Counted from the stretch's first letter, positions 2,021-51,433 are shown. The stretch: DNA of 64,000 bases from Clostridia bacterium (GCA_017472695.1 JAFUOQ010000016.1:25944-89943), one strand, 5' to 3'. Numbers and translations are program-made. Notes: generated by a model not told the origin, from the letters alone.

Positions 2021-2153
2021 GGTTTCTCCTTTCGCTTCTAATTGAATGCTATTATATTAAACGGACAGTCGAGGACGCCTGTCCCTACGATTTAAATCCC
2101 CAGTCGCTAAGCGCAGCCCCCTTTACAAAGGTGCCACACACGGGATTTGCCAT

Positions 2154-3752
2154 TTAGATTAAATTCTTCTCTCTTTTATATTGAATATACTCCTCGTATG
2201 TGCCACTGTAATCGTAAATACCATCTTCCCTAAACTCGATTATACGGTTAGCTACTGTATTTACAGTTTCGTAGTCGTGAGAGTAGAAAAGAATATTTCC
2301 CTTAAAATCGGAAAGACCGTTGTTTACGGCTGTGATTGATTCAAGGTCTAGGTGGTTTGTTGGCTGGTCAAGAAGCAAGAAGTTTGAGCCGAAGAGCATC
2401 ATACGAGAGAACATACATCTCGCCTTTTCTCCACCCGAAAGAACATTTACAGGCTTGAAAATTGAATCGCCCGAGAACAACATTCTGCCAAGGAATCCGC
2501 GCAAATAGGTTTCTGTTTGGTCCTTTGAATATCTTCTCATCCAGTCAAGGATTGAGTCCTTGCATCCGTCAAAATAATCTATATTGTCCTTTGGGAAATA
2601 TGATTTTGTAATGCTAACTCCCCATTTAAATGAGCCACTATCAGCCTCCTGCTCCTCCATTAAAATCTTGAAAAACGCAGTGATAGCCATTTCGTTTCCA
2701 AGGAGTGCGATTTTTTCGCCCTTACTAGCAGTAAAGGACACATTTTTAAACAGTGATACTCCGTTTTCTGACCTTGAAAGGTTGGTTACTGTCAAAATAT
2801 CCTTGCCCGCTTCCCTATCCATATCAAATCCGATAAATGGATAACGACGGCTTGAGGCTGGCAATTCCTCAACTGTTAATTTATCAAGTAGCTTTCTTCT
2901 TGAGGTAGCCTGACGCGATTTTGATTTATTTGCAGAGAAACGAGAAATAAAGCTTTGAAGCTCTTTAATTTTCTCTTCGTTTTTCTTGTTTTGTTGCTTA
3001 ATCATACGTTGGATAAGCTGGCTTGATTCATACCAAAACTCATAGTTACCAACATACATTTTAATGCCTGTATAGTCAATATCGACGATGTTTGTGCAGA
3101 CATCATTTAAGAAGTGACGGTCGTGCGATACGACAAGAACAGTGCCAAAATAATCGGACAAAAAGTCCTCAAGCCAAGTGATTGCATCAATGTCAAGACC
3201 GTTTGTTGGCTCATCGAGCAATATAATATCAGGATTGCCAAAAAGGGCTTGTGCTAGAAGCACCTTAACCTTTTCGCTCTCCTTTAAATTTGCCATTTGC
3301 TCGTAAAGAAGGCTTTCATCAAGACCAAGTCCTTGGATAAGCTTTGAGGCATCACTTTCAGCCTCCCAGCCGTTCAGCTCTGCAAACTCACCCTCAAGCT
3401 CGCTAGCGCGAATGCCATCCTCCTCGGAGAAATCCTCCTTCATATATAAAGCGTCCTTTTCCTTCATAATAGAATAAAGGCGCTCATTACCCATAATAAC
3501 CGTGTCAAGAACGGTATATTCGTCAAATTCGAAGTGGTTTTGCTTTAAAACACTCATTCTAACAGTATCAGGAATTATAACTTCACCCTTGGTTGGATCA
3601 AGCTCACGACAAAGAATACGCAAAAATGTACTCTTTCCTGCTCCGTTAGCACCAATAACACCATAGCAGTTGCCAGGTGTGAATTTTAAATTAACATCTT
3701 TAAAAAGTAATTGTCCTCCAAAATTGAAGGATAAGTTGTTTACTGTAATCAT
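2154..3752 (-). CDS. ABC-F family ATPase (two ABC domains, no membrane domain)
   Basis: 532 aa with two Walker A motifs (GANGAGKST; second degenerate GNEMAITAF), two LSGGE signature motifs and a charged inter-domain linker (QQNKKNEEKIKELQ). Confidence 0.9.
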   Translation of the reverse strand: MITVNNLSFNFGGQLLFKDVNLKFTPGNCYGVIGANGAGKSTFLRILCRELDPTKGEVIIPDTVRMSVLKQNHFEFDEYTVLDTVIMGNERLYSIMKEKDALYMKEDFSEEDGIRASELEGEFAELNGWEAESDASKLIQGLGLDESLLYEQMANLKESEKVKVLLAQALFGNPDIILLDEPTNGLDIDAITWLEDFLSDYFGTVLVVSHDRHFLNDVCTNIVDIDYTGIKMYVGNYEFWYESSQLIQRMIKQQNKKNEEKIKELQSFISRFSANKSKSRQATSRRKLLDKLTVEELPASSRRYPFIGFDMDREAGKDILTVTNLSRSENGVSLFKNVSFTASKGEKIALLGNEMAITAFFKILMEEQEADSGSFKWGVSITKSYFPKDNIDYFDGCKDSILDWMRRYSKDQTETYLRGFLGRMLFSGDSIFKPVNVLSGGEKARCMFSRMMLFGSNFLLLDQPTNHLDLESITAVNNGLSDFKGNILFYSHDYETVNTVANRIIEFREDGIYDYSGTYEEYIQYKREKNLI

Positions 3753-17441: not shown

Positions 17442-17607
17442 ATGATACCTCTTATCATAAAGTTATAATCTTACAGAGTAATTATAACATTATATTATAT
17501 ATTTGTCAATATGGCAAAGTGCCTAAATTTGTGCAATGTTTACAATTTTATCATTTTTGCATCGAAATTTAGGTGAAAATATAACAAAACAAAAAAGCAC
17601 TTGCGTT

Positions 17608-17809
17608 GGCGTGATACTCTTATCGGAGTATCACGCCAGTTCTATTCGCCTGCGGCGAGTGATATTGCTACGCAGTGATATTTGGCTTACGCCGAGTGGT
17701 ATTCGCTACGCGAGTTTGAAAGGCGAATAGAATATCACTGAAGCCGCAAGGCTTCAATATCATTATTGCTGCAGCAATAATATCACTCCGACGAAGTCGG
17801 AATATAACT
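17608..17809. repeat. Convergent array of 9-mers (AGTGATATT x3, then AATATCAYT x4) interleaved with GC-rich mini-hairpins
   Basis: Read directly. AGTGATATT at 17658, 17674 and 17695 (variant). Reverse complement AATATCACT/AATATCATT/AATATAACT at 17731, 17756, 17779 and 17801. Perfect hairpin 17608-17637. 11-bp outer stem 17640-17650 / 17722-17732. Confidence 0.8.
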
Positions 17810-17853
17810 CTTGTTTTCTCTGCCGATTTGTGTTATAATGGGGCTAATCAAAA

Positions 17854-17975
17854 GCCTCCCTTGTGTAAAGGGAGGTGGCAGCCGAAGGCTGACGGAGGGA
17901 TTGTAAAAAAGCCCAAAACATCAGAAAACAATCCCTCAGTCGCTAACGCGACAGCTCCCTTTACACAAGGGAGCC
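17854..17975. mobile_element. Cargo-less (MITE-like) copy of the inverted-repeat element that carries DUF559 at 29987-30432
   Basis: Two ~48-51 nt arms in inverted orientation (17854-17904 and 17928-17975) separated by only 23 nt. Each arm is made of two mini-hairpins and is near-identical to the arms at 29987-30035 / 30381-30432. Confidence 0.7.
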
Positions 17976-18100
17976 TCAGTATGCGCGCAACTTTAGGGGT
18001 ATGGGCTTTGCCCGATGCATTTGTAATACAAATGCGAAACTGGCGATAAAGCATAACGGTAAATACTAATTCTTCTAACTTGATTTTGGAGGGAATACCA

Positions 18101-18499
18101 ATGAAATATCAGCTCCATGATTCTGAGATTGATTCTTTTATTCTTGAAAAAGATTCGATCATTCTTTCATTCCCAAATGGCTTTTATGCCGAGGATGATA
18201 ATGGAAATGAAATAATGCCTTTAAGGCATAAGCTTGTATTTACAATCGACCGAACCTGTCCTGATGAACCGTTAGAATCTTCTGTCTTTATTAGGAGAAT
18301 CAATCGTCGTTATAACGGTTGGAAGGATATTTCTTTTAAGCAATTTATTTCTCTTTTCAAAAAAGGAAATATGGTTATACATGATGAATACGACAGCAAG
18401 CTAACAAACTGGAAAATGATCCAGCTTAATACAAGCACGAGCCGGTCAAATATCGAACTGTTCATAACGGACATTCTTGATATAGCCTGTTACGAATGA
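18101..18499 (+). CDS. Hypothetical protein (132 aa)
   Basis: ATG at 18101 follows GGAGGG. No recognisable domain. A bidirectional terminator hairpin (18541-18583) follows. Confidence 0.5.
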   Translation: MKYQLHDSEIDSFILEKDSIILSFPNGFYAEDDNGNEIMPLRHKLVFTIDRTCPDEPLESSVFIRRINRRYNGWKDISFKQFISLFKKGNMVIHDEYDSKLTNWKMIQLNTSTSRSNIELFITDILDIACYE

Positions 18500-18688
18500 T
18501 ATAGACGATAGGAGTCATAATCAAATACCAAATCATCGAATAATTAACGCCGACAGACCCTGAAAATCTGTCGGCGTTAATTATTTGGTTACTGTGGAGC
18601 AATTCTTCGCAATATGAACAAACTGATTGTGATTTCTCCACTAAGAACATCACGCCTTGTCGCAAGTGCTTTTATTTATTCAACCAAA

Positions 18689-25043: not shown

Positions 25044-25409
25044 CGAACTAGGTTGGACGGTTGCGCATTACCATGCCGAAAGGTAGTAGTGTGAGGAAAG
25101 TCCGTGCTTCGCAGGGCAGGATAGCTGATAACGTCAGCCAGAGGTGACTCTCGGGAAAGTGCAACAGAAAATTACCGCCTCGCAAGAGGTAAGGATGAAA
25201 ACGCGAGGTAAGAGCTCACGATGCGCTATGGTAACATAGAGCAGGTGTAAACCCTATCTGAAGCAACACCGCATATGGAAATTTTATTTGCCCGATAAGG
25301 CTTTTTGCCGTTCCCATGGGTGGCATGCATTTTTGCAGAGCCTTGTGGTGACACAAGGCAAAGATAGATGACCGTCGAATACAGAACACGGCTTATAGAC
25401 TTAGTTCAC
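25044..25409 (+). ncRNA. rnpB: RNase P RNA, bacterial class A
   Basis: Universal GAGGAAAGTCCG, AGTGCAACAGAAA, GGTAAGAGC.CAC, GGTAAACCC and ACAGAACACGGCTTAT blocks in the order seen in E. coli M1 RNA. The 5' GAACTAGG pairs with the 3' CTTAGTTC (P1). Confidence 0.93.
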
Positions 25410-25416
25410 TTAATAT

Positions 25417-29681: not shown

Positions 29682-29986
29682 ATTCTACTCCTTTCCTTAT
29701 TTTAAAAAATCACTACTATTTTAGCACAAATTTTTTCTATATGCAATATATATTATGAATTTTAATAAAATTTAACAAAATATTGTATTTTTGGTGAATT
29801 CGTCAACAAAAATGAGCCGAATAGGGTTGTACCCTATAGGACAGTTTTCCAAAATACGGCATATCTCTTTTGAGATATGCCGTATTTCGCGTTTGTGTCC
29901 ACAAATGCAGTGCTTCGTCTGTATTAACTAAAGACTACAACAAAATTACGGTTATTTTGATATGCGAAAAGTCCGCACAAATCAAA

Positions 29987-30432
29987 GGCTCCCTTGTGTA
30001 AAGGGAGCTGTCAGCGAAGCTGACTGAGGGATTGTTCTACGAGGTGATCAATATATTCACAAACACCTCGAAAGTTTTTATGTATTTCCGTATTCGGTAT
30101 TCTGATAACCATCAATCCGTATTCTTCAAGAAAAGCGGTTCTTTCTTCATCATATTGCTTTCCTTTCTCGGTATAATGTCCTGAGCCGTCAAGCTCTATA
30201 ATAAGCTTTGCCTCTGCACAGTAAAAATCCGCAATATGCCTTCCGAGAACCTTTTGGCGTGAAAAACGAATGGGATAGGTGCGCAAAAAATCATACCAAA
30301 GGTGCTTTTCTTCTTTGGTCATATTCTTTCGTAGCATTTTAGCAGTGAGAACTATGTCTTTATTATGTTTTCTCTGCATTACAATCCCTCCGTCACGCTT
30401 TGCGTGCCACCTCCCTTTACACAAGGGAGGCT
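29987..30432 (-). mobile_element. Inverted-repeat-bounded cassette carrying a DUF559 endonuclease gene
   Basis: Arms 29987-30035 and 30381-30432 are inverted copies of the same two-hairpin sequence seen at 17854-17975. The DUF559 ORF fills the space between them exactly, with its stop codon inside the left arm. Confidence 0.7.
30011..30379 (-). CDS. DUF559 (Vsr/restriction-endonuclease-like fold) domain protein
   Basis: Typical DUF559 sequence LRKNMTKEEKHLWYDFLR...RFSRQKVLGRHIADFYCAEAKLIIELDGSGH. I start at the ATG at 30379 (MQRKHNKD) because the 15 codons upstream are the translated repeat arm. Confidence 0.85.
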   Translation of the reverse strand: MQRKHNKDIVLTAKMLRKNMTKEEKHLWYDFLRTYPIRFSRQKVLGRHIADFYCAEAKLIIELDGSGHYTEKGKQYDEERTAFLEEYGLMVIRIPNTEIHKNFRGVCEYIDHLVEQSLSQLR

Positions 30433-30509
30433 TTTGCTGATTAACACCTCAGTATTTCTCAATAAATGGAAATTTGACAATCTTCATATGATGTTTTCTG
30501 TTTTTAACC

Positions 30510-31001
30510 TCAATAAATAAACCGCTTCAACCATTCCGGCTGTTCTTCAAGAGCAGCATATAATTTTTGTAGTGTTCTTTTCCCAATGCGCCTATCTAAA
30601 ACCGCAAACATTCTAACAATAGGATGACTTGAAAAAATGCTCTCCTGTATGTCTTGATTGCGATATATTTCTAAAGCTTCGCAAAATTCCTCATCTGTAT
30701 ATTCCGTACGTTGATTTATAGGATATTTCTCCAACAATGTCCAAAACTCTGCCCAGTATTCACCAATACCGCTTGGATTTGCATTTTTCGTATATCCACT
30801 ATCAATAAAATAGGTATTCACGGTTTCCCAAGAGAAACGTTTTACTTGCTTGCCATCTATGGAAACCTCAAAAATATGACAACCGTCCATTCCTACGTAT
30901 GTGGTACAACCATATCTTAATTTGCCTTGTAGTGAATTGGCAAGCATATCTTGTTCAAGATACTTTCTCATTCCGCTCCATGAACCAAGTATTTTCCCCA
31001 T
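30510..31001 (-). CDS. Hypothetical cytoplasmic protein (163 aa)
   Basis: ATG at 31001 is preceded by GAGGAGGTG (the ORF-track start at 31040 lacks an SD). Family not confidently recognised. Confidence 0.55.
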   Translation of the reverse strand: MGKILGSWSGMRKYLEQDMLANSLQGKLRYGCTTYVGMDGCHIFEVSIDGKQVKRFSWETVNTYFIDSGYTKNANPSGIGEYWAEFWTLLEKYPINQRTEYTDEEFCEALEIYRNQDIQESIFSSHPIVRMFAVLDRRIGKRTLQKLYAALEEQPEWLKRFIY

Positions 31002-31170
31002 AAAGAACACCTCCTCGTAAAATTCGTATTTATCCGTCATACACTTATGCTACTATTATAACACAAAAACCGCAGAAAATCAATCTGCGGTTTCTGCTTT
31101 TCTGTCGGTAGGTAATGTATTCCCAAAACTGTCCTTTAGAGTACCGCTCTATAGCATCGGCTCTTTTTTA

Positions 31171-34787: not shown

Positions 34788-35172
34788 AGCACGATATAAA
34801 AAATCAGAAGCAAAATGATGTTGCAATCCACTAATATAGAAATCAACCTATACGAGATAATCGTATAGGTTGATTTTTTATATTTTTGCAAGAGCTTAAG
34901 CATTTTGGTGTCAAGTGTATGGCTGTTATAACTTTTCATTTCTGTGTCCGTGCGTCCGTTTCCATAATGCCAAATTTTCCTTTTAAATTAAAAAATAGCG
35001 GGGCAAGTGTCTGATATTGGCTTTGTAAAGTTCCTAAACAATATTTCATGTGATTTTTACGACATATGAAAAACCGTACGGTTTTATCCATACGGGTTTT
35101 ATTTTTAATTGTTTTTTTGGTGAATTGGTATCCAATTGGTATCCGGTATCCATTTTTGAAGAATCTAAAAGT

Positions 35173-35238
35173 CCTAAAAGACTTGCGGTGCAAGGCTTTT
35201 TGGTTTTAGTTATCGCTCAAAGGCTTCATTGTTGGGAG
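35173..35238. repeat. lysS 3'-end/terminator copy A (att-like core, most diverged)
   Basis: The reverse strand of ttagttatcgctcaaaggcttcattgttggga encodes PTMKPLSDN*. It sits beside a hairpin analogous to the lysS terminator. Confidence 0.8.
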
Positions 35239-35250
35239 CAGTGTGAATTG

Positions 35251-35339
35251 CGTGGCATAACGTGGCAAAGCTTTGCATATCTTGACATTTTGGCTTTCCA
35301 CGTTTTCCATAACTTCTCATAAATTGGCATACGGTTACA
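35251..35339. repeat. 89-nt element arm, copy 1 (100% identical to 39223-39311)
   Basis: Compared base by base. The arm contains GTGGCATAAC GTGGCAAAG and TTGGCATAC motifs. Confidence 0.9.
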
Positions 35340-35446
35340 TCATTATGACGCACACTTTGAAATACATGGCGTGTGGATATAAAATACTATTAAATCTACA
35401 TTGATAGATATGCTTCTTGCCTCTATGCACCAAAATTGTAGTTTTC

Positions 35447-38917: not shown

Positions 38918-39144
38918 TGATTGCATTCCTTTTGATTAGTCAATACAAGCTCTTAAACAAGTCTTGAATATGGGCTTTGTGTAGCTTCATACAAACTTTA
39001 AAAGAGGGAGTTTGGCACACAAAAAAGAACCACAGGATTTTTATGTCCTGTGGTCTTGTTTTTAATTGAATTTTTTCGTGTGTTTTTGCCTGCAAATTGG
39101 TACACTTTTGGTACACTAACGGCTTTTTGATTTTTTCAAAAGTG

Positions 39145-39210
39145 CCGAAAAGCCTTGTAGTATAAGGCTTTGCGGGATTAGTTATCTGCCAAAGGCTTCA
39201 TTGTTGGGAG
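39145..39210. repeat. lysS 3'-end/terminator copy B (att-like core)
   Basis: The reverse strand of ttagttatctgccaaaggcttcattgttggga encodes PTMKPLADN*. It differs from the true lysS end only at three synonymous positions and includes a copy of the terminator hairpin. Confidence 0.85.
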
Positions 39211-39222
39211 TGGTGGTAAATA

Positions 39223-39311
39223 CGTGGCATAACGTGGCAAAGCTTTGCATATCTTGACATTTTGGCTTTCCACGTTTTCCATAACTTCTCATAAATTGGC
39301 ATACGGTTACA
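39223..39311. repeat. 89-nt element arm, copy 2 (100% identical to 35251-35339)
   Basis: Compared base by base. Further TTGGCACAC / TTGGCATAC repeats follow (39316-39337). Confidence 0.9.
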
Positions 39312-39597
39312 GCACTTTGGCACACGATTTGGCATACGTGGCGTGTGGCTATTACACTAATGAAAAATAGTGAAAAAATAGTGAAATTTTTGTGGAAATT
39401 TTAATGTAATTGTGGTATAATAAAAACACATGATATCAATAACGCAAGCACTATTGCGGTGTTTTTATTGACGGCTAAAAGGTTTTTCTTCGCCTTTTGC
39501 TTGAAAAACGCATCTTACGATGCTACAAACACTTTTGTGTTTGCTTTTATGGTATAATACTATTAGTCAACATCTTAATTTGCAAAAAGGAGAAAAT

Positions 39598-41214: not shown

Positions 41215-44200
41215 TCATTTACAGTACCAGTAATAAGAGCAATATGAGATTTTTAAATAAGTGGCATTCGTACTTGAATACAGAACACTAACATTTGTTC
41301 CACTTGTTGCACCTTCTGTTGTTGTTACATACCAACCGGAAATATCGTCAAAACTCACCGTTTTTAACGAAGTACAACCTGCGAACGCATATTTCCCTAT
41401 TGAGGTTACCTTATTAGGAATCACCACTTTTGTAAGCGAAGTACAACCTGAGAACGCACTGCTTCCTATTGAGGTTAGGTTACTTCCAAATGTTACATTT
41501 GTAAGCGAGGTGCAATCTGAGAACGCACTGCTTCCTATTGAAGTCAGGTTAGTTCCAAATATTACACTTGTAAGCGAAGTACAACTTGAGAACGCACTGC
41601 CTCCTATTGAAATAAGGTTGGTTCCAAACGTTACACTTGTAAGCAAGGTACAGTCTCTAAACGCAGAGTTTCCTATCGAGGTTACGCTATCGGGAATCAC
41701 AATACTTTTAAGCGAAGTGCAACTTCTAAATGCATATTGTCCTATTGAGGTTACATTATTAGGAATCACTACTCTTATAAGCGAAGTGCAATAAGAGAAC
41801 ATAAAATTTCCTATCGATGCTATGCTATCAGGCAATTTGATGCGTGTAAGCAAGTCGCAACCACTGAACGCTTCGTTTCCTATAGATGTTACGCTATTTG
41901 GTATTGTTAGATTTGTAAGCGAGGTGCAACCTGAGAACGCAGAATCACCTATTGTAGTTACACTATCCCCAATTGTTACGCTTGTAAGTGAGGCGCAGCT
42001 ACGGAAAGCATAGTCTCCAATAGATGTTACGCTATTTGGAATTGTTACACTTGTTATATCGTCTCGATTATAGAAAGCATACTGGTTTATAGAATAACTT
42101 TCACCATTATAACCTTCTGGCAAGATGAGCTCTTTTTCATCGCCTATATAATCTATAAGATATATTTCCTTGTCACTTACTACTTTAAATACATAGCCGT
42201 CTTCAGTCGTTTCTATCATGCTATTTTCATTCAATATGTGTACTTCCTTTGCATAATAGCCCAAATATCCGTTGCTCTTTGTTCCAAGAGTTATATTTAA
42301 TTTAGAAAGATTACATACCTCTACAAGCTTGTAACACTTGTAGAAAGCACAGTCTCCAATGGATGTTACGCCATTTGGAATTGTTACACTTGTTATATCG
42401 TTACGATTATAGAAAGCATACTGGTTTATAGAATAATCTTTACCATTATAGCTTTCTGGTAATTTAATCTTTGTATTAGTTCCTACATATCCCACAAGGT
42501 AATATTTATTTTCCCAAGTCATAAAAATATAATCATAAACTGTTTCAAGTATACTTGGTTCAACTTCATCAAGCGAGTCGTGTACTACCTTTGCATAATA
42601 TCCTATGTATCCATAGTTGTTTGAACCTTTGATTATATATAAGTACGAATTATTATATACCTCTACAAGCTTGTAACAGTTATTGAAAGCATAGTCTCCA
42701 ATGCTTTTTACGCCATTTCCAATGATTACACTTATCAAGCTGTCGCAATTATTGAATGCATTTTCTCCAATTGAAGATACACCGTTGCCAATTGTTATGC
42801 TTGTAAGCTTGTCGCAATCATAGAACGCACTATCTCCTATTGAGGTCACACTGTCTGGGATTATTATATTTATAAGTGAGTCGCAATTACAAAATGCAGA
42901 ATTATCTATTGTAGTTACACTATCCCCAATTGTTACGCTTGCAAGCGAGGTGCAACCATAGAAAGCATAATTATCTATAGAGGTTACGCCATTCGGAATT
43001 ATTACTTTAGTTATATCACTTCGTTCAAAGAAGGCATACTGGTTTATAGAATAATCTTTACCATTATAGCCTTCTGGCAATGTAAGTTCTTTTTCATCGC
43101 CTATGTAATCTATAAGGTATATTTCCTGATTACTTACTACTGCAAATACATAGCCATCTTCGGTTGTTTGAATTACACTGTTTTTAGACAATCTATGTTC
43201 TACCTTTACATAATAGTTTAAACCTCCGTCACTACTCGAACCGACGTCTATATCAACATCATAAGCGTTATTATATACTTCTACAAGCCTGTAGCAACCA
43301 CTGAACGCGTTGTCCTTTATCCAAGTTATACTAGGTGGTAATACTATGCTTTTCAGCGAAGTGCAATCTGAGAACGCATATTCTCCAATCAAGGTTACAT
43401 TCAATCCAATTGTCATATTTTCAAGTGATGTACAATATTGGAACGCACGGTCTCCTATTGAAGTTACACTATCTCCGATTGTTAGACTTGTCATTCTATT
43501 GCAATTATAGAATGCTTTACTTCCAATTGATTTTACACGATTTCCAATTGTTGCACTTTCAAGCAAAATACAGTTGTTGAATGCGCAGTCTCCAATTGAG
43601 GTTATATTATCCCCAATCGTTACACTTTCAAGCGATGCGCAACCAGAGAACGCATATCCTCCAATTGAGGTTACACTATCTGGAATCACAAATGATTTAT
43701 CCTGTTTTCCAACAGCATATTGTACAAGTGTTTTTCCATCCTTGGAATATAGATTTCCATCTATTGATTTATATACGGTATTGTTTTCGTCAACACTTAT
43801 GCTTGTAAGCGCGATGCAATCAAGGAATGCACCTTCTTCTATCGAGGTAACAGCTATTCCTTCGTAGGTGCTTGGAATTTCAATTCTAGTATTCTCGCAA
43901 AATCCAACACTGACAAGAGTATATTTGCCAGCATCATTTATTGCAAATACAAGCCCTTCTACCGGCATAATCTTACCGCAAACAGTACACATATAGTCTT
44001 CATATGCATGATTATTTGTTACCGGTACTTCAACTTGTGCTATAAGAATTTCACCACAAGAAGAACATTTTTTACCTTCAGTTAAACCTGTTTTGACACA
44101 GGTAGGCTCAACAATAGAAAGGGTTTCTTCCGTATGACCGTTAGCATCTATTACTGTTTGCTTTACTATAATTTCTCCGCAATCGGAGCACTTTTTTCCC

Positions 44201-51368: not shown

Positions 51369-51433
51369 CCGAAAAGCCTTGTAGTACAAGGCTTTGTGGG
51401 ATTAGTTATCTGCCAAGGGTTTCATCGTTGGGA
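51369..51433. repeat. lysS 3'-end/terminator copy C (functional end of lysS; att-like core)
   Basis: Same ~65-nt sequence as copies A and B. It includes the real lysS stop (51402-51404) and the terminator hairpin aaagccttgta(gta)caaggcttt. Confidence 0.9.

Follow-up and report, generated by a model that had tools for sequence, protein, structure and literature searches.

A hairpin-arm doublet of gut Clostridia as a candidate vacant docking site for a DUF559 nuclease gene

Why does one stretch of clostridial DNA carry the same pair of hairpin arms twice, once around a gene and once around 23 nucleotides? The window, which is the whole stretch of 64,000 nucleotides analysed here (Clostridia bacterium, GCA_017472695.1, JAFUOQ010000016.1:25944-89943), holds at 29983-30435 two inverted arms that enclose a 122-aa open reading frame (ORF) on the minus strand. 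At 17854-17975 it holds a 122-base feature in which an inverted pair of the same two arm types, ~55 nt each, surrounds a 23-nt A/T-rich centre (whole element 17849-17979, 131 nt). The enclosed ORF encodes a DUF559 protein, a family that is, to our knowledge, among the largest uncharacterised nuclease families of bacteria. This work identifies the gene-less feature as a genuine but empty copy of a two-armed hairpin repeat that is widespread in gut Clostridia and in their phages. The repeat family is apparently hitherto undescribed: the literature on the arm sequence, on DUF559 with inverted repeats, and on miniature inverted-repeat transposable elements (MITEs) or REPs in Clostridia gave no account of this element, and Rfam returned no match on the arms at the gathering score, nor at E values up to 10 with permissive filters. 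We give an even chance to the reading that the doublet at 17849-17979 is the vacant docking site of a REPIN-like repeat which, together with a homing-like, Vsr-fold DUF559 nuclease, is spread by break-induced copying.

Anatomy, distribution and pairing of the arms

Read from outside to inside, an arm comprises AAAG, a first hairpin (hp1, [C/G]CTCCCTT-GTGYA-AAGGGAG[G/C]), TG, a second hairpin (hp2) and C[G/T]GAGGGATTGT. The sequence of hp1 is conserved, hp2 is variable in sequence but paired, and the arm ends in the unpaired, conserved tail GAGGGATTGT. Two types of arm are distinguished among 339 copies collected from Oscillospiraceae, Acutalibacteraceae, other gut Clostridia and viral contigs. 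Type 1 (T1) closes hp1 with C..G and has CG ahead of the tail (142-144 arms), and type 2 (T2) closes hp1 with G..C and has CT ahead of the tail (191-193 arms); the linkage between closing pair and CG/CT is broken in 6/339 arms only. The window doublet is composed of the following parts:

17845-17854, plus strand: outer box TAATCAAAAG, directly outside the T1 arm; similar boxes (ATCA..AAAAG) precede T1 arms at window 30436-30449 and in sequences L118 and L278 (sequences from outside the window carry L numbers)
17855-17875, plus strand: hp1 of the T1 arm, C-CTCCCTT-GTGTA-AAGGGAG-G, conserved in sequence, with a C-G closing pair
17879-17891, plus strand: hp2 of the T1 arm, CAGCC-GAA-GGCTG, with a GNA triloop; pairing kept, sequence variable among copies
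17894-17904, plus strand: T1 tail GGAGGGATTGT, Shine-Dalgarno-like; in loaded copies the DUF559 ATG lies 1-2 nt further on
17905-17927, no strand: centre, 23 nt, A/T-rich, the place taken by DUF559 in loaded copies (346-347 nt there)
17928-17939, minus strand: T2 tail, read on the plus strand as ACAATCCCTCAG, read from the sequence
17940-17951, minus strand: hp2 of the T2 arm, TCGC-GTTA-GCGA in arm orientation, read from the sequence
17954-17974, minus strand: hp1 of the T2 arm, with a G-C closing pair, a match to the hp1 core
2092-2139, minus strand: degenerate fifth arm of T2 type, intergenic, a covariance-model match of 12.9 bits (E 0.022)

The hp1 core CCTCCCTTGTGTAAAGGGAGG matches the window four times with at most two mismatches, at 17855-17875 (+), 17954-17974 (-), 29988-30008 (+) and 30410-30430 (-), against 0.00 matches in shuffled sequence. 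A repeat finder pairs the type-1 arms 17849-17906 and 30379-30436 over 58 nt (91% complementary) and the type-2 hp1 regions 17950-17976 and 29986-30012 over 27 nt (100% complementary). The four arms score 62-73 bits (E 1e-21 to 1e-25) with a covariance model from unrelated copies, which found no other strong copy in the 64-kb window; with the degenerate fifth arm, the window thus has four strong copies and one degenerate copy.

The initial annotation had described this locus as both arm types in the opposite overall orientation, separated by 23 nt instead of a gene, and the sequence bears this out, the centre being 17905-17927. It also holds for the two hairpin contrasts reported there, namely CAGCC-GAA-GGCTG (17879-17891) against CACGC-AAA-GCGTG (30394-30406) for type 1, and TCGC-GTTA-GCGA (17940-17951) against TCAGC-GAA-GCTGA (30011-30023) for type 2. 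The ORFs called across the doublet (17828-18049 and 17848-18054) had been dismissed as translated repeat, rightly in our analysis: neither has a Pfam family above threshold, and unrelated doublets occupy the same place in other copies of the multicopy element that hosts this one (host element A, described below). Because that slot turns over, ORFs across the doublet cannot be conserved.

To delimit the family, viral contigs and one-genome-per-species bacterial contigs were searched with a pattern that fixed hp1 and the tail only. The pattern occurs in 117 viral stretches and in at least 120 bacterial stretches. Among the matches listed, the genome hosts are mainly metagenome-assembled genomes (MAGs) of Oscillospiraceae, Acutalibacteraceae, Faecousia, Ruminococcus and unclassified Clostridia/Eubacteriales. 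The host MAGs come from human, goat, deer, rabbit and chicken guts, and the cultured Vescimonas fastidiosa bears unannotated arm copies. One sequence (L021, ~2960-3080) has a partial hp1 unit (CTCCCTTGTGCAAAGG) four times in tandem, followed by a complete arm.

Covariation was first assessed in 33 unrelated arms of one length class, picked by their anchors alone, against 500 column shuffles. Each of the seven hp2 pairs varies on both sides, with a score of 0.391 that exceeds that of the shuffles (0.085 ± 0.014; 0/500 as high) and that obtained when the 3' partner was slid by 1-3 columns (≤0.049). The covariance model built from these 33 arms (R1) recovered 124 matches in 31 sources, divergent subfamilies included. 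Among 108 distinct arms aligned with the model, both sides vary in 13/15 pairs, pairing holds in 95.8% of cells and a score of 0.466 is reached (shuffles 0.129 ± 0.007, 0/500 reach it; ≤0.083 when slid); this alignment leans towards structure because it was fitted to the model, a bias of which the 33-arm test is free. The closing pair of hp1 is CG in 58 aligned arms, GC in 46 and unpaired in two. At least 4 contiguous base pairs in a fixed register are formed by 129/178 distinct hp2 regions (shuffle mean 3.8), and the hp2 loop is GNA or GNNA in 96/150.

Pairing of the hairpins is maintained across copies, and the earlier remark that both stem halves had changed together, made on the window arms, extends to these larger alignments. 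The further step taken in the initial annotation, that selection acts on structure rather than on sequence, stands as far as pairing is conserved over sequence; as for selection, template switching within a palindrome also alters both halves at once. The whole doublet is predicted to fold into a four-way junction, both as RNA (-65.6 kcal/mol, z -8.6) and as DNA (-40.5 kcal/mol, z -10.7). The energy model prefers a long arm-to-arm stem, for which arm covariation gives no support; it is the local hairpin that is conserved, since the two bases of the hp1 closing pair covary within the arm and T1 and T2 have different closing pairs.

Empty and loaded doublets

Arms occur as singles, as direct tandems with other subfamilies, as tail-to-tail empty doublets and as doublets loaded with DUF559. 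Outside the window, 28 distinct short doublets were found in genomes and viral contigs, of which 26 are composed of T1 plus T2. Thirteen distinct doublets from 11 other MAGs have A/T-rich centres of 19-26 nt whose sequences are unrelated to one another; further centre classes are 16 nt and 30-99 nt. In DUF559-loaded doublets the centre measures 346-347 nt in every case, and empty doublets outnumber loaded ones by ~5:1 in the genome sample. The loaded cassette of the window has three overlapping or adjoining parts:

29983-30036, plus strand: T2 arm, whose hp2 holds the last DUF559 codons and the stop codon
30014-30379, minus strand: DUF559 gene, 122 aa (PF04480, E 1.3e-28), with the presumed active-site motif E-x-D...H (ELDGSGH)
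30380-30435, minus strand: T1 arm, whose tail supplies the Shine-Dalgarno site (GGAGGGATTGTAATG)

The ATG comes after GGAGGGATTGTA, and the last codons with the stop (…AGT CAG CTT CGC TGA) fall in the hp2 of T2. The same anatomy is found in eight independent cassettes, namely those of the window, the MgtC-GH36, GDPD-HAD and MutS-NUDIX loci, and L162, L227, L207 and L224. T1 precedes the ATG by 1-2 nt in 8/8, down to 69% protein identity, and T2 covers the stop codon in 7/8, the remaining one being L224, where an 80-nt insert splits T2. Polarity is constant in all eight, with T1 on the start-codon side and T2 on the stop-codon side. The gene thus fills the centre exactly, with the T1 tail as its ribosome-binding site and its end inside the hp2 of T2. 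One and the same insert of ~80 nt (…CCTTCGGCCCGGGTCGCAA…TTTTCTTAACGCGTCG) splits T2 arms between hp2 and hp1 at unrelated loci (L224 ~60-160, L131 ~230-330, L129 45-110) and may represent a further nested small element.

A protein search with the window DUF559 returned at least 8000 relatives, of which the best 120 are 82-95% identical. The mis-called N- and C-terminal extensions of the best relatives are translated T1 and T2, in at least six different contexts. Every identical DUF559 protein maps to one locus only, so the gene is not currently multicopy, and a recent multicopy spread of DUF559 was rejected on this ground. Among solved structures 3HRL, an 'endonuclease-like protein', is closest (E 3e-11 with the single sequence, 8e-15 with the profile), and there are weak matches to methyl-directed restriction nucleases. 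Sequence search reached none of the EDxHD enzymes. The partner is a small DUF559 nuclease with a predicted Vsr-like PD-(D/E)XK fold. A 58%-identical DUF559 gene in L280 (884-1364) lies between a promoter-like box and an intact doublet of another subfamily; it adjoins the outer side of that doublet, and its reading frame runs into the hp1 of the T1-like arm and stops within this first arm. This arrangement is a second docking geometry of the DUF559 gene.

DUF559 is the only recurrent protein partner of the arms, found at 6/120 genome loci among the matches listed, and no homologue is encoded in the 117 viral stretches; the idea that DUF559 accompanies every arm was rejected on these counts. Neither a transposase family of any kind, Y1 transposase included, nor an integrase is among the 25 most frequent families of 132 arm-adjacent ORFs, and most of these ORFs with a Pfam match belong to ordinary housekeeping families. 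Enrichment of transposases near arms was rejected from the same families. No target-site duplication was seen in the flanks of 34 distinct elements, where the inverted symmetry AAAG…CTTT continues instead.

The window cassette is part of a unit of 1.33 kb, framed by inverted repeats at 29821-29848 and 31125-31152, with a hairpin and TGTGTTATAAT at one end, a passenger ORF of the SF0329 family (30510-31040), the DUF559 cassette, and a terminator hairpin at the other end. Related units hold a homologous slot in either state: empty, as T1-23/26 nt-T2, in L253, L238 and L228, and loaded, as T1-DUF559-T2, in the window, L227 and L162. The hp2 stem of T1 (CACGC/GCGTG) is common to all six slot copies, and its loop alone differs. 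The hp2 of T2 differs between empty and loaded copies and tracks the gene, because the gene's last codons lie in it; an internal deletion alone would not produce this change, while insertion of the gene with its 3' hairpin would. The homologous units of L227, L162, L253, L238 and L228 bear other passenger ORFs, including NUDIX and TnpV.

A second case of gene-plus and gene-minus alleles is provided by the chromosomal MgtC-GH36 site. Strains with a 98%-identical MgtC lack the cassette there and have one hp1 hairpin followed by an apparent decayed arm. The filled allele (L118 2784-3000; L278 2724-2927) has an extra T1, a 5' DUF559 fragment and a duplicated MgtC 3' end upstream of the full cassette, a scar of the kind left by repair-mediated copying. 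At the window's own two loci, no strain polymorphism is present among the contigs with the neighbouring proteins; only 2-6 contigs have these proteins, and the arrangement is identical in all. Judged by the homologous slots, the empty and loaded forms are two states of one element.

The empty window doublet lies within a different, multicopy element:

17612-18652, plus strand: host element A, multicopy, 1.04 kb, with terminal inverted repeats 17612-17634 and 18629-18652 (alignment of copies)
17831-17839, plus strand: extended -10 promoter-like box TGTTATAAT, ~10 nt upstream of the doublet, kept in L127, L128, L135, L136, L134, L280 and L243
17977-18100, plus strand: conserved leader (TAGGGGTATGGGCTTTGCCC from 17994), then the ribosome-binding site of the 132-aa ORF (alignment of copies)
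18101-18499, plus strand: 132-aa ORF of host element A, all-beta fold, no family assigned

Host element A lies within the loop of a bidirectional terminator, whose stems it separates (17591-17605 and 18661-18677), and is ordered as left terminal repeat, Gut-1-like hairpin array, extended -10 box, doublet, leader, ORF, terminator and right terminal repeat. The TGTTATAAT box was unreported by a consensus promoter scan because it has no -35 hexamer. The 132-aa protein is identical in at least 10 genomic contexts. It has a predicted all-beta fold (pLDDT 91.6) with weak likeness to a polymorphic-toxin immunity protein (8owu_D, E 5e-3, TM 0.33-0.37); it is not a transposase. Sister copies (L127, L128, L135, L136, L132, L131) are 95-99% identical in the ORF region and have the same flanks but doublets of other subfamilies, with different hp1 sequences and an unchanged architecture. 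L243, from a Eubacteriales MAG, has a doublet of the same subfamily as the window, and L134 holds in the doublet slot (540-838) a RAYT-like C-terminal remnant (…HIIRNRQDYDEHLRYIYENPVRW…) with GTAG-type palindromes and no Pfam match. The slot is thus replaced far more often than the sequence around it, which is most simply explained by gene conversion between dispersed doublets.

Two further observations concern host element A. The copy in L127 has a 7-bp direct repeat, CCTGTTT, at its ends. In the window copy, 17650-17810 is an array of short hairpins with GTGATATT linkers, its halves inverted to each other, which is absent from sister copies and gives sub-threshold matches to Rfam Gut-1 RNA (RF01706, 37.9 and 31.3 bits; gathering score 50).

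The docking-site reading and its rivals

Under the docking-site reading, the arms would be the docking or cleavage site of the DUF559 nuclease. A break, whether in an arm or in a vacant doublet, would be repaired from another copy, with the palindromic hp1, or whole arms, as the homology. Such copying would make doublets both more numerous and more alike, and through it the DUF559 gene would invade vacant doublets as a homing endonuclease gene does. Arm anatomy, covariation, distribution of the family, constant polarity, the empty and loaded forms and the nesting within a larger element are established by the data, whereas we infer cleavage of the arms by the nuclease, the direction from empty to loaded, and copying by repair. 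The window doublet lies in the presumably transcribed leader of host element A, in a slot that has been overwritten by differing doublet subfamilies in sister copies.

The reading draws on two known systems. As in REPIN-RAYT (Bertels and Rainey 2011; PMC3116915, PMC3337134), short palindromic units occur singly or as inverted doublets with a short spacer, here in the window (23-nt centre) and in the 28 short doublets elsewhere. The doublets can fold into long hairpins, they are intergenic, they show no target duplication, and a single-copy protein gene lies between inverted units. Unlike RAYT, the flanked gene encodes a DUF559 PD-(D/E)XK nuclease instead of a Y1/HUH transposase. Other differences are that GTAG is absent from the arm consensus AAAG[C/G]CTCCCTT...GAGGGATTGT, that each unit has two hairpins and a conserved tail and belongs to one of two arm types with fixed polarity, and that the present family spans many genera and phage contigs, whereas REPINs are described as mostly vertical within a lineage.

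Among Vsr-fold homing endonucleases there are enzymes that work as homodimers on pseudopalindromic sites, as exemplified by I-Bth0305I (PMC3239194). The EDxHD homing genes of this type share with the present system a small nuclease of Vsr-like fold, a gene located exactly within its presumed target, alleles with and without the gene at homologous sites (here the slot copies and the MgtC-GH36 polymorphism, in which the gene interrupts the presumed target) and the expectation of a pseudopalindromic target. They differ in that the DUF559 gene is in no intron or intein, that its putative target is a dispersed repeat instead of a unique conserved gene, that the 122-aa protein has no counterpart of the extra DNA-binding domain of I-Bth0305I, and that DUF559 sequence search reaches 3HRL only.

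Several points weigh against this reading. For this DUF559 clade, neither a cleavage activity nor a target is known to us. Arms are mostly single, which leaves the majority of copies with no nuclease close by, and the viral stretches encode no DUF559 homologue. The single-locus distribution of identical DUF559 proteins shows no recent homing burst. The cassette-free MgtC-GH36 allele holds a single hp1 hairpin and no doublet. Slot flanks are 85-91% identical between loaded copies and 68-71% between loaded and empty ones; with the loaded genomes nearer to one another than to those with an empty slot, a single event, gain or loss of the ORF, would fit either way. Template-switch mutation can by itself preserve the pairing of a palindrome, even of one that has no function. 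Finally, assemblies of multicopy repeats may be chimeric, and L135 has the right flank of L128 but another left flank.

Among the rivals, the one that survives best, though still doubtful, takes the doublet as a functional RNA in the leader of the 132-aa ORF or at gene 3' ends (a 5' stabiliser, Shine-Dalgarno decoy, processing site, or terminator/insulator), with mobility incidental. The position suits such a role, as the doublet begins just past the extended -10 box and upstream of the ORF, in a slot kept in sister copies, and so do the very stable predicted RNA fold and the loops of GNRA or GNA type. The minus-strand T1 hp1 is followed by CTTTTG and scores as terminator-like, and in many doublets an A-run flanks one side and a T-run the opposite side; the hp1 of T2, however, has no U-tract in the direction of the ORF. 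Gene context in the genomes points both ways: 14 arms lie between convergent and four between divergent genes, but next to co-directional genes both orientations occur (17 forward, 26 reverse), a weak test of RNA function, since ORFs are a poor proxy for genes in high-GC contigs. Harder to accommodate are the composition of the doublets as inverted DNA pairs of two types, the replacement of the same-slot doublet by other subfamilies and the absence of the family from Rfam. A leader-RNA role of this copy for the 132-aa gene would be compatible with an origin by break-induced copying.

Less probable is an origin of the doublet from the DUF559 cassette, by deletion as a MITE-like derivative or by excision as a footprint, with the ORF lost and the arms left. 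Arm types, polarity and tails are the same at both window loci, homologous slots hold empty and loaded forms, and the centre of L253 starts with TAAAGG, one base apart from the TAATGG of the loaded centre. Bacterial MITEs and mosaic repeats such as Correia, ERIC, BOX and RUP are likewise of ~120 nt, with terminal inverted repeats, without coding capacity, intergenic and able to alter transcripts, and the window doublet is a short non-coding element with terminal inverted repeats (arms of ~55 nt in 131 nt). Unlike those repeats, it has no visible target-site duplication and no parent insertion sequence (IS) with a known transposase, and its internal hairpins covary. A parent IS with the same ends and a transposase was not found, the sole longer form being the one that bears DUF559 and no known transposase.

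The initial annotation favoured such an origin. The relationship between doublet and cassette that it proposed is upheld by the homologous slots that hold either form, whereas the window doublet did not arise recently from 29983-30435, by deletion or by excision: the hp2 of T1 and that of T2 each differ from their counterparts in the cassette, no clear trace of the ORF is left in the centre, and doublet and cassette lie in different host elements. The same centre class (19-26 nt, A/T-rich) recurs in the 11 other MAGs with unrelated sequences, empty doublets exceed loaded ones in the genome sample, and the T2 hp2 of empty alleles is unlike the gene-linked one, which internal deletion alone would not change.

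Still more unlikely, in our estimate, is a true REPIN or palindrome-associated transposable element (PATE), the arms being ends that a Y1/HUH transposase (RAYT or IS200-type TnpA), encoded at another place in the genome, recognises in the form of single-stranded hairpins, with DUF559 a mere passenger. The ends of IS200/IS605 elements and their palindrome-associated derivatives (PMC6006769) resemble the arms in their subterminal hairpins, conserved flanking motifs and lack of target duplication, and short-spacer doublets are seen here too; their ends differ, since the arm ends are inverted instead of direct, and no TnpA or TnpB gene is associated with the arms. The RAYT-like remnant in the doublet slot of L134 would suit such a transposase but has no Pfam match, and the GTAG-type REP-like hairpin at 2062-2090, which adjoins the degenerate arm 2092-2139, is set against arms that lack the GTAG motif. 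Y1 transposases are missing from the 25 most frequent families of the neighbouring ORFs, and the gene flanked by the arms is DUF559 in 8/8 cases, with fixed polarity.

Readings as an integron attC site or a CRISPR repeat, and of the four-way fold as a tRNA-like structure, were dropped, as the defining motifs are absent. An attC site is an imperfect palindrome of ~60-140 nt beside a single passenger ORF, with structure conserved above sequence, and is in these respects alike. It is defined by R''/L''...L'/R' core sites with GTTRRRY and by the IntI integrase. The arm consensus has no GTTRRRY core boxes, integrases are missing from the 25 most frequent families of the neighbouring ORFs, sequence is conserved in hp1 and in the tail, and the elements lie inside units with bounding terminal inverted repeats.

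An invertible switch, in which a recombinase would flip the segment between the inverted arms, is very improbable, because, despite inverted repeats 50 nt long and a survey across bacteria in which 'DUF559 domain-containing protein' is 14-fold enriched among predicted targets of programmed inversion (PMC9881135), the one polarity of all eight independent cassettes speaks against it, arms with mixed T1/T2 signatures are rare (6/339), no recombinase gene lies nearby and a 23-nt empty centre offers nothing to switch. The enrichment in that survey shows that DUF559 genes outside this clade, too, are commonly flanked by inverted repeats.

Other repeats of the window and significance

Three features of the window lie apart from the arms. 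Long arrays of 69-nt periodic repeats (41346-43852; 13-20 copies, 60-79% identity) probably encode a 23-residue repeat protein. A 217-nt repeat at 35164-35380 and 39136-39352 (84% identity), with a third copy of 65 nt at 51369-51433 (92%), contains the hairpin AAAGCCTTGTAGTAYAAGGCTTT. The bacterial RNase P RNA, class A, is located at 25045-25411 (238 bits), in keeping with a clostridial host.

For genome annotation, the arms matter because gene callers translate them in many assemblies of Clostridia and phages, which yields peptides that do not exist and proteins wrongly extended at the N or C terminus, such as the ...PPLCKGRW... and ...LPLHKGGF... ORFs here. The covariance model of the arm, together with the two-type anatomy, would allow arms to be masked in the annotation of gut genomes.

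For the nuclease family, a fixed and conserved DNA partner offers a concrete candidate substrate, open to synthesis and assay, and gives DUF559 a testable role. More tentatively than for the window doublet itself, we suggest that this DUF559 clade may consist of homing-type endonucleases that target a dispersed, structured palindromic repeat, with hp1 as the minimal landing pad, and that propagate themselves together with it as RAYT does with REPINs, by way of a PD-(D/E)XK nuclease and break-induced copying. If true, this would be a second pairing of a nuclease with a repeat beside RAYT-REPIN, in which a single-copy enzyme gene maintains short palindromic repeats by a different chemistry.

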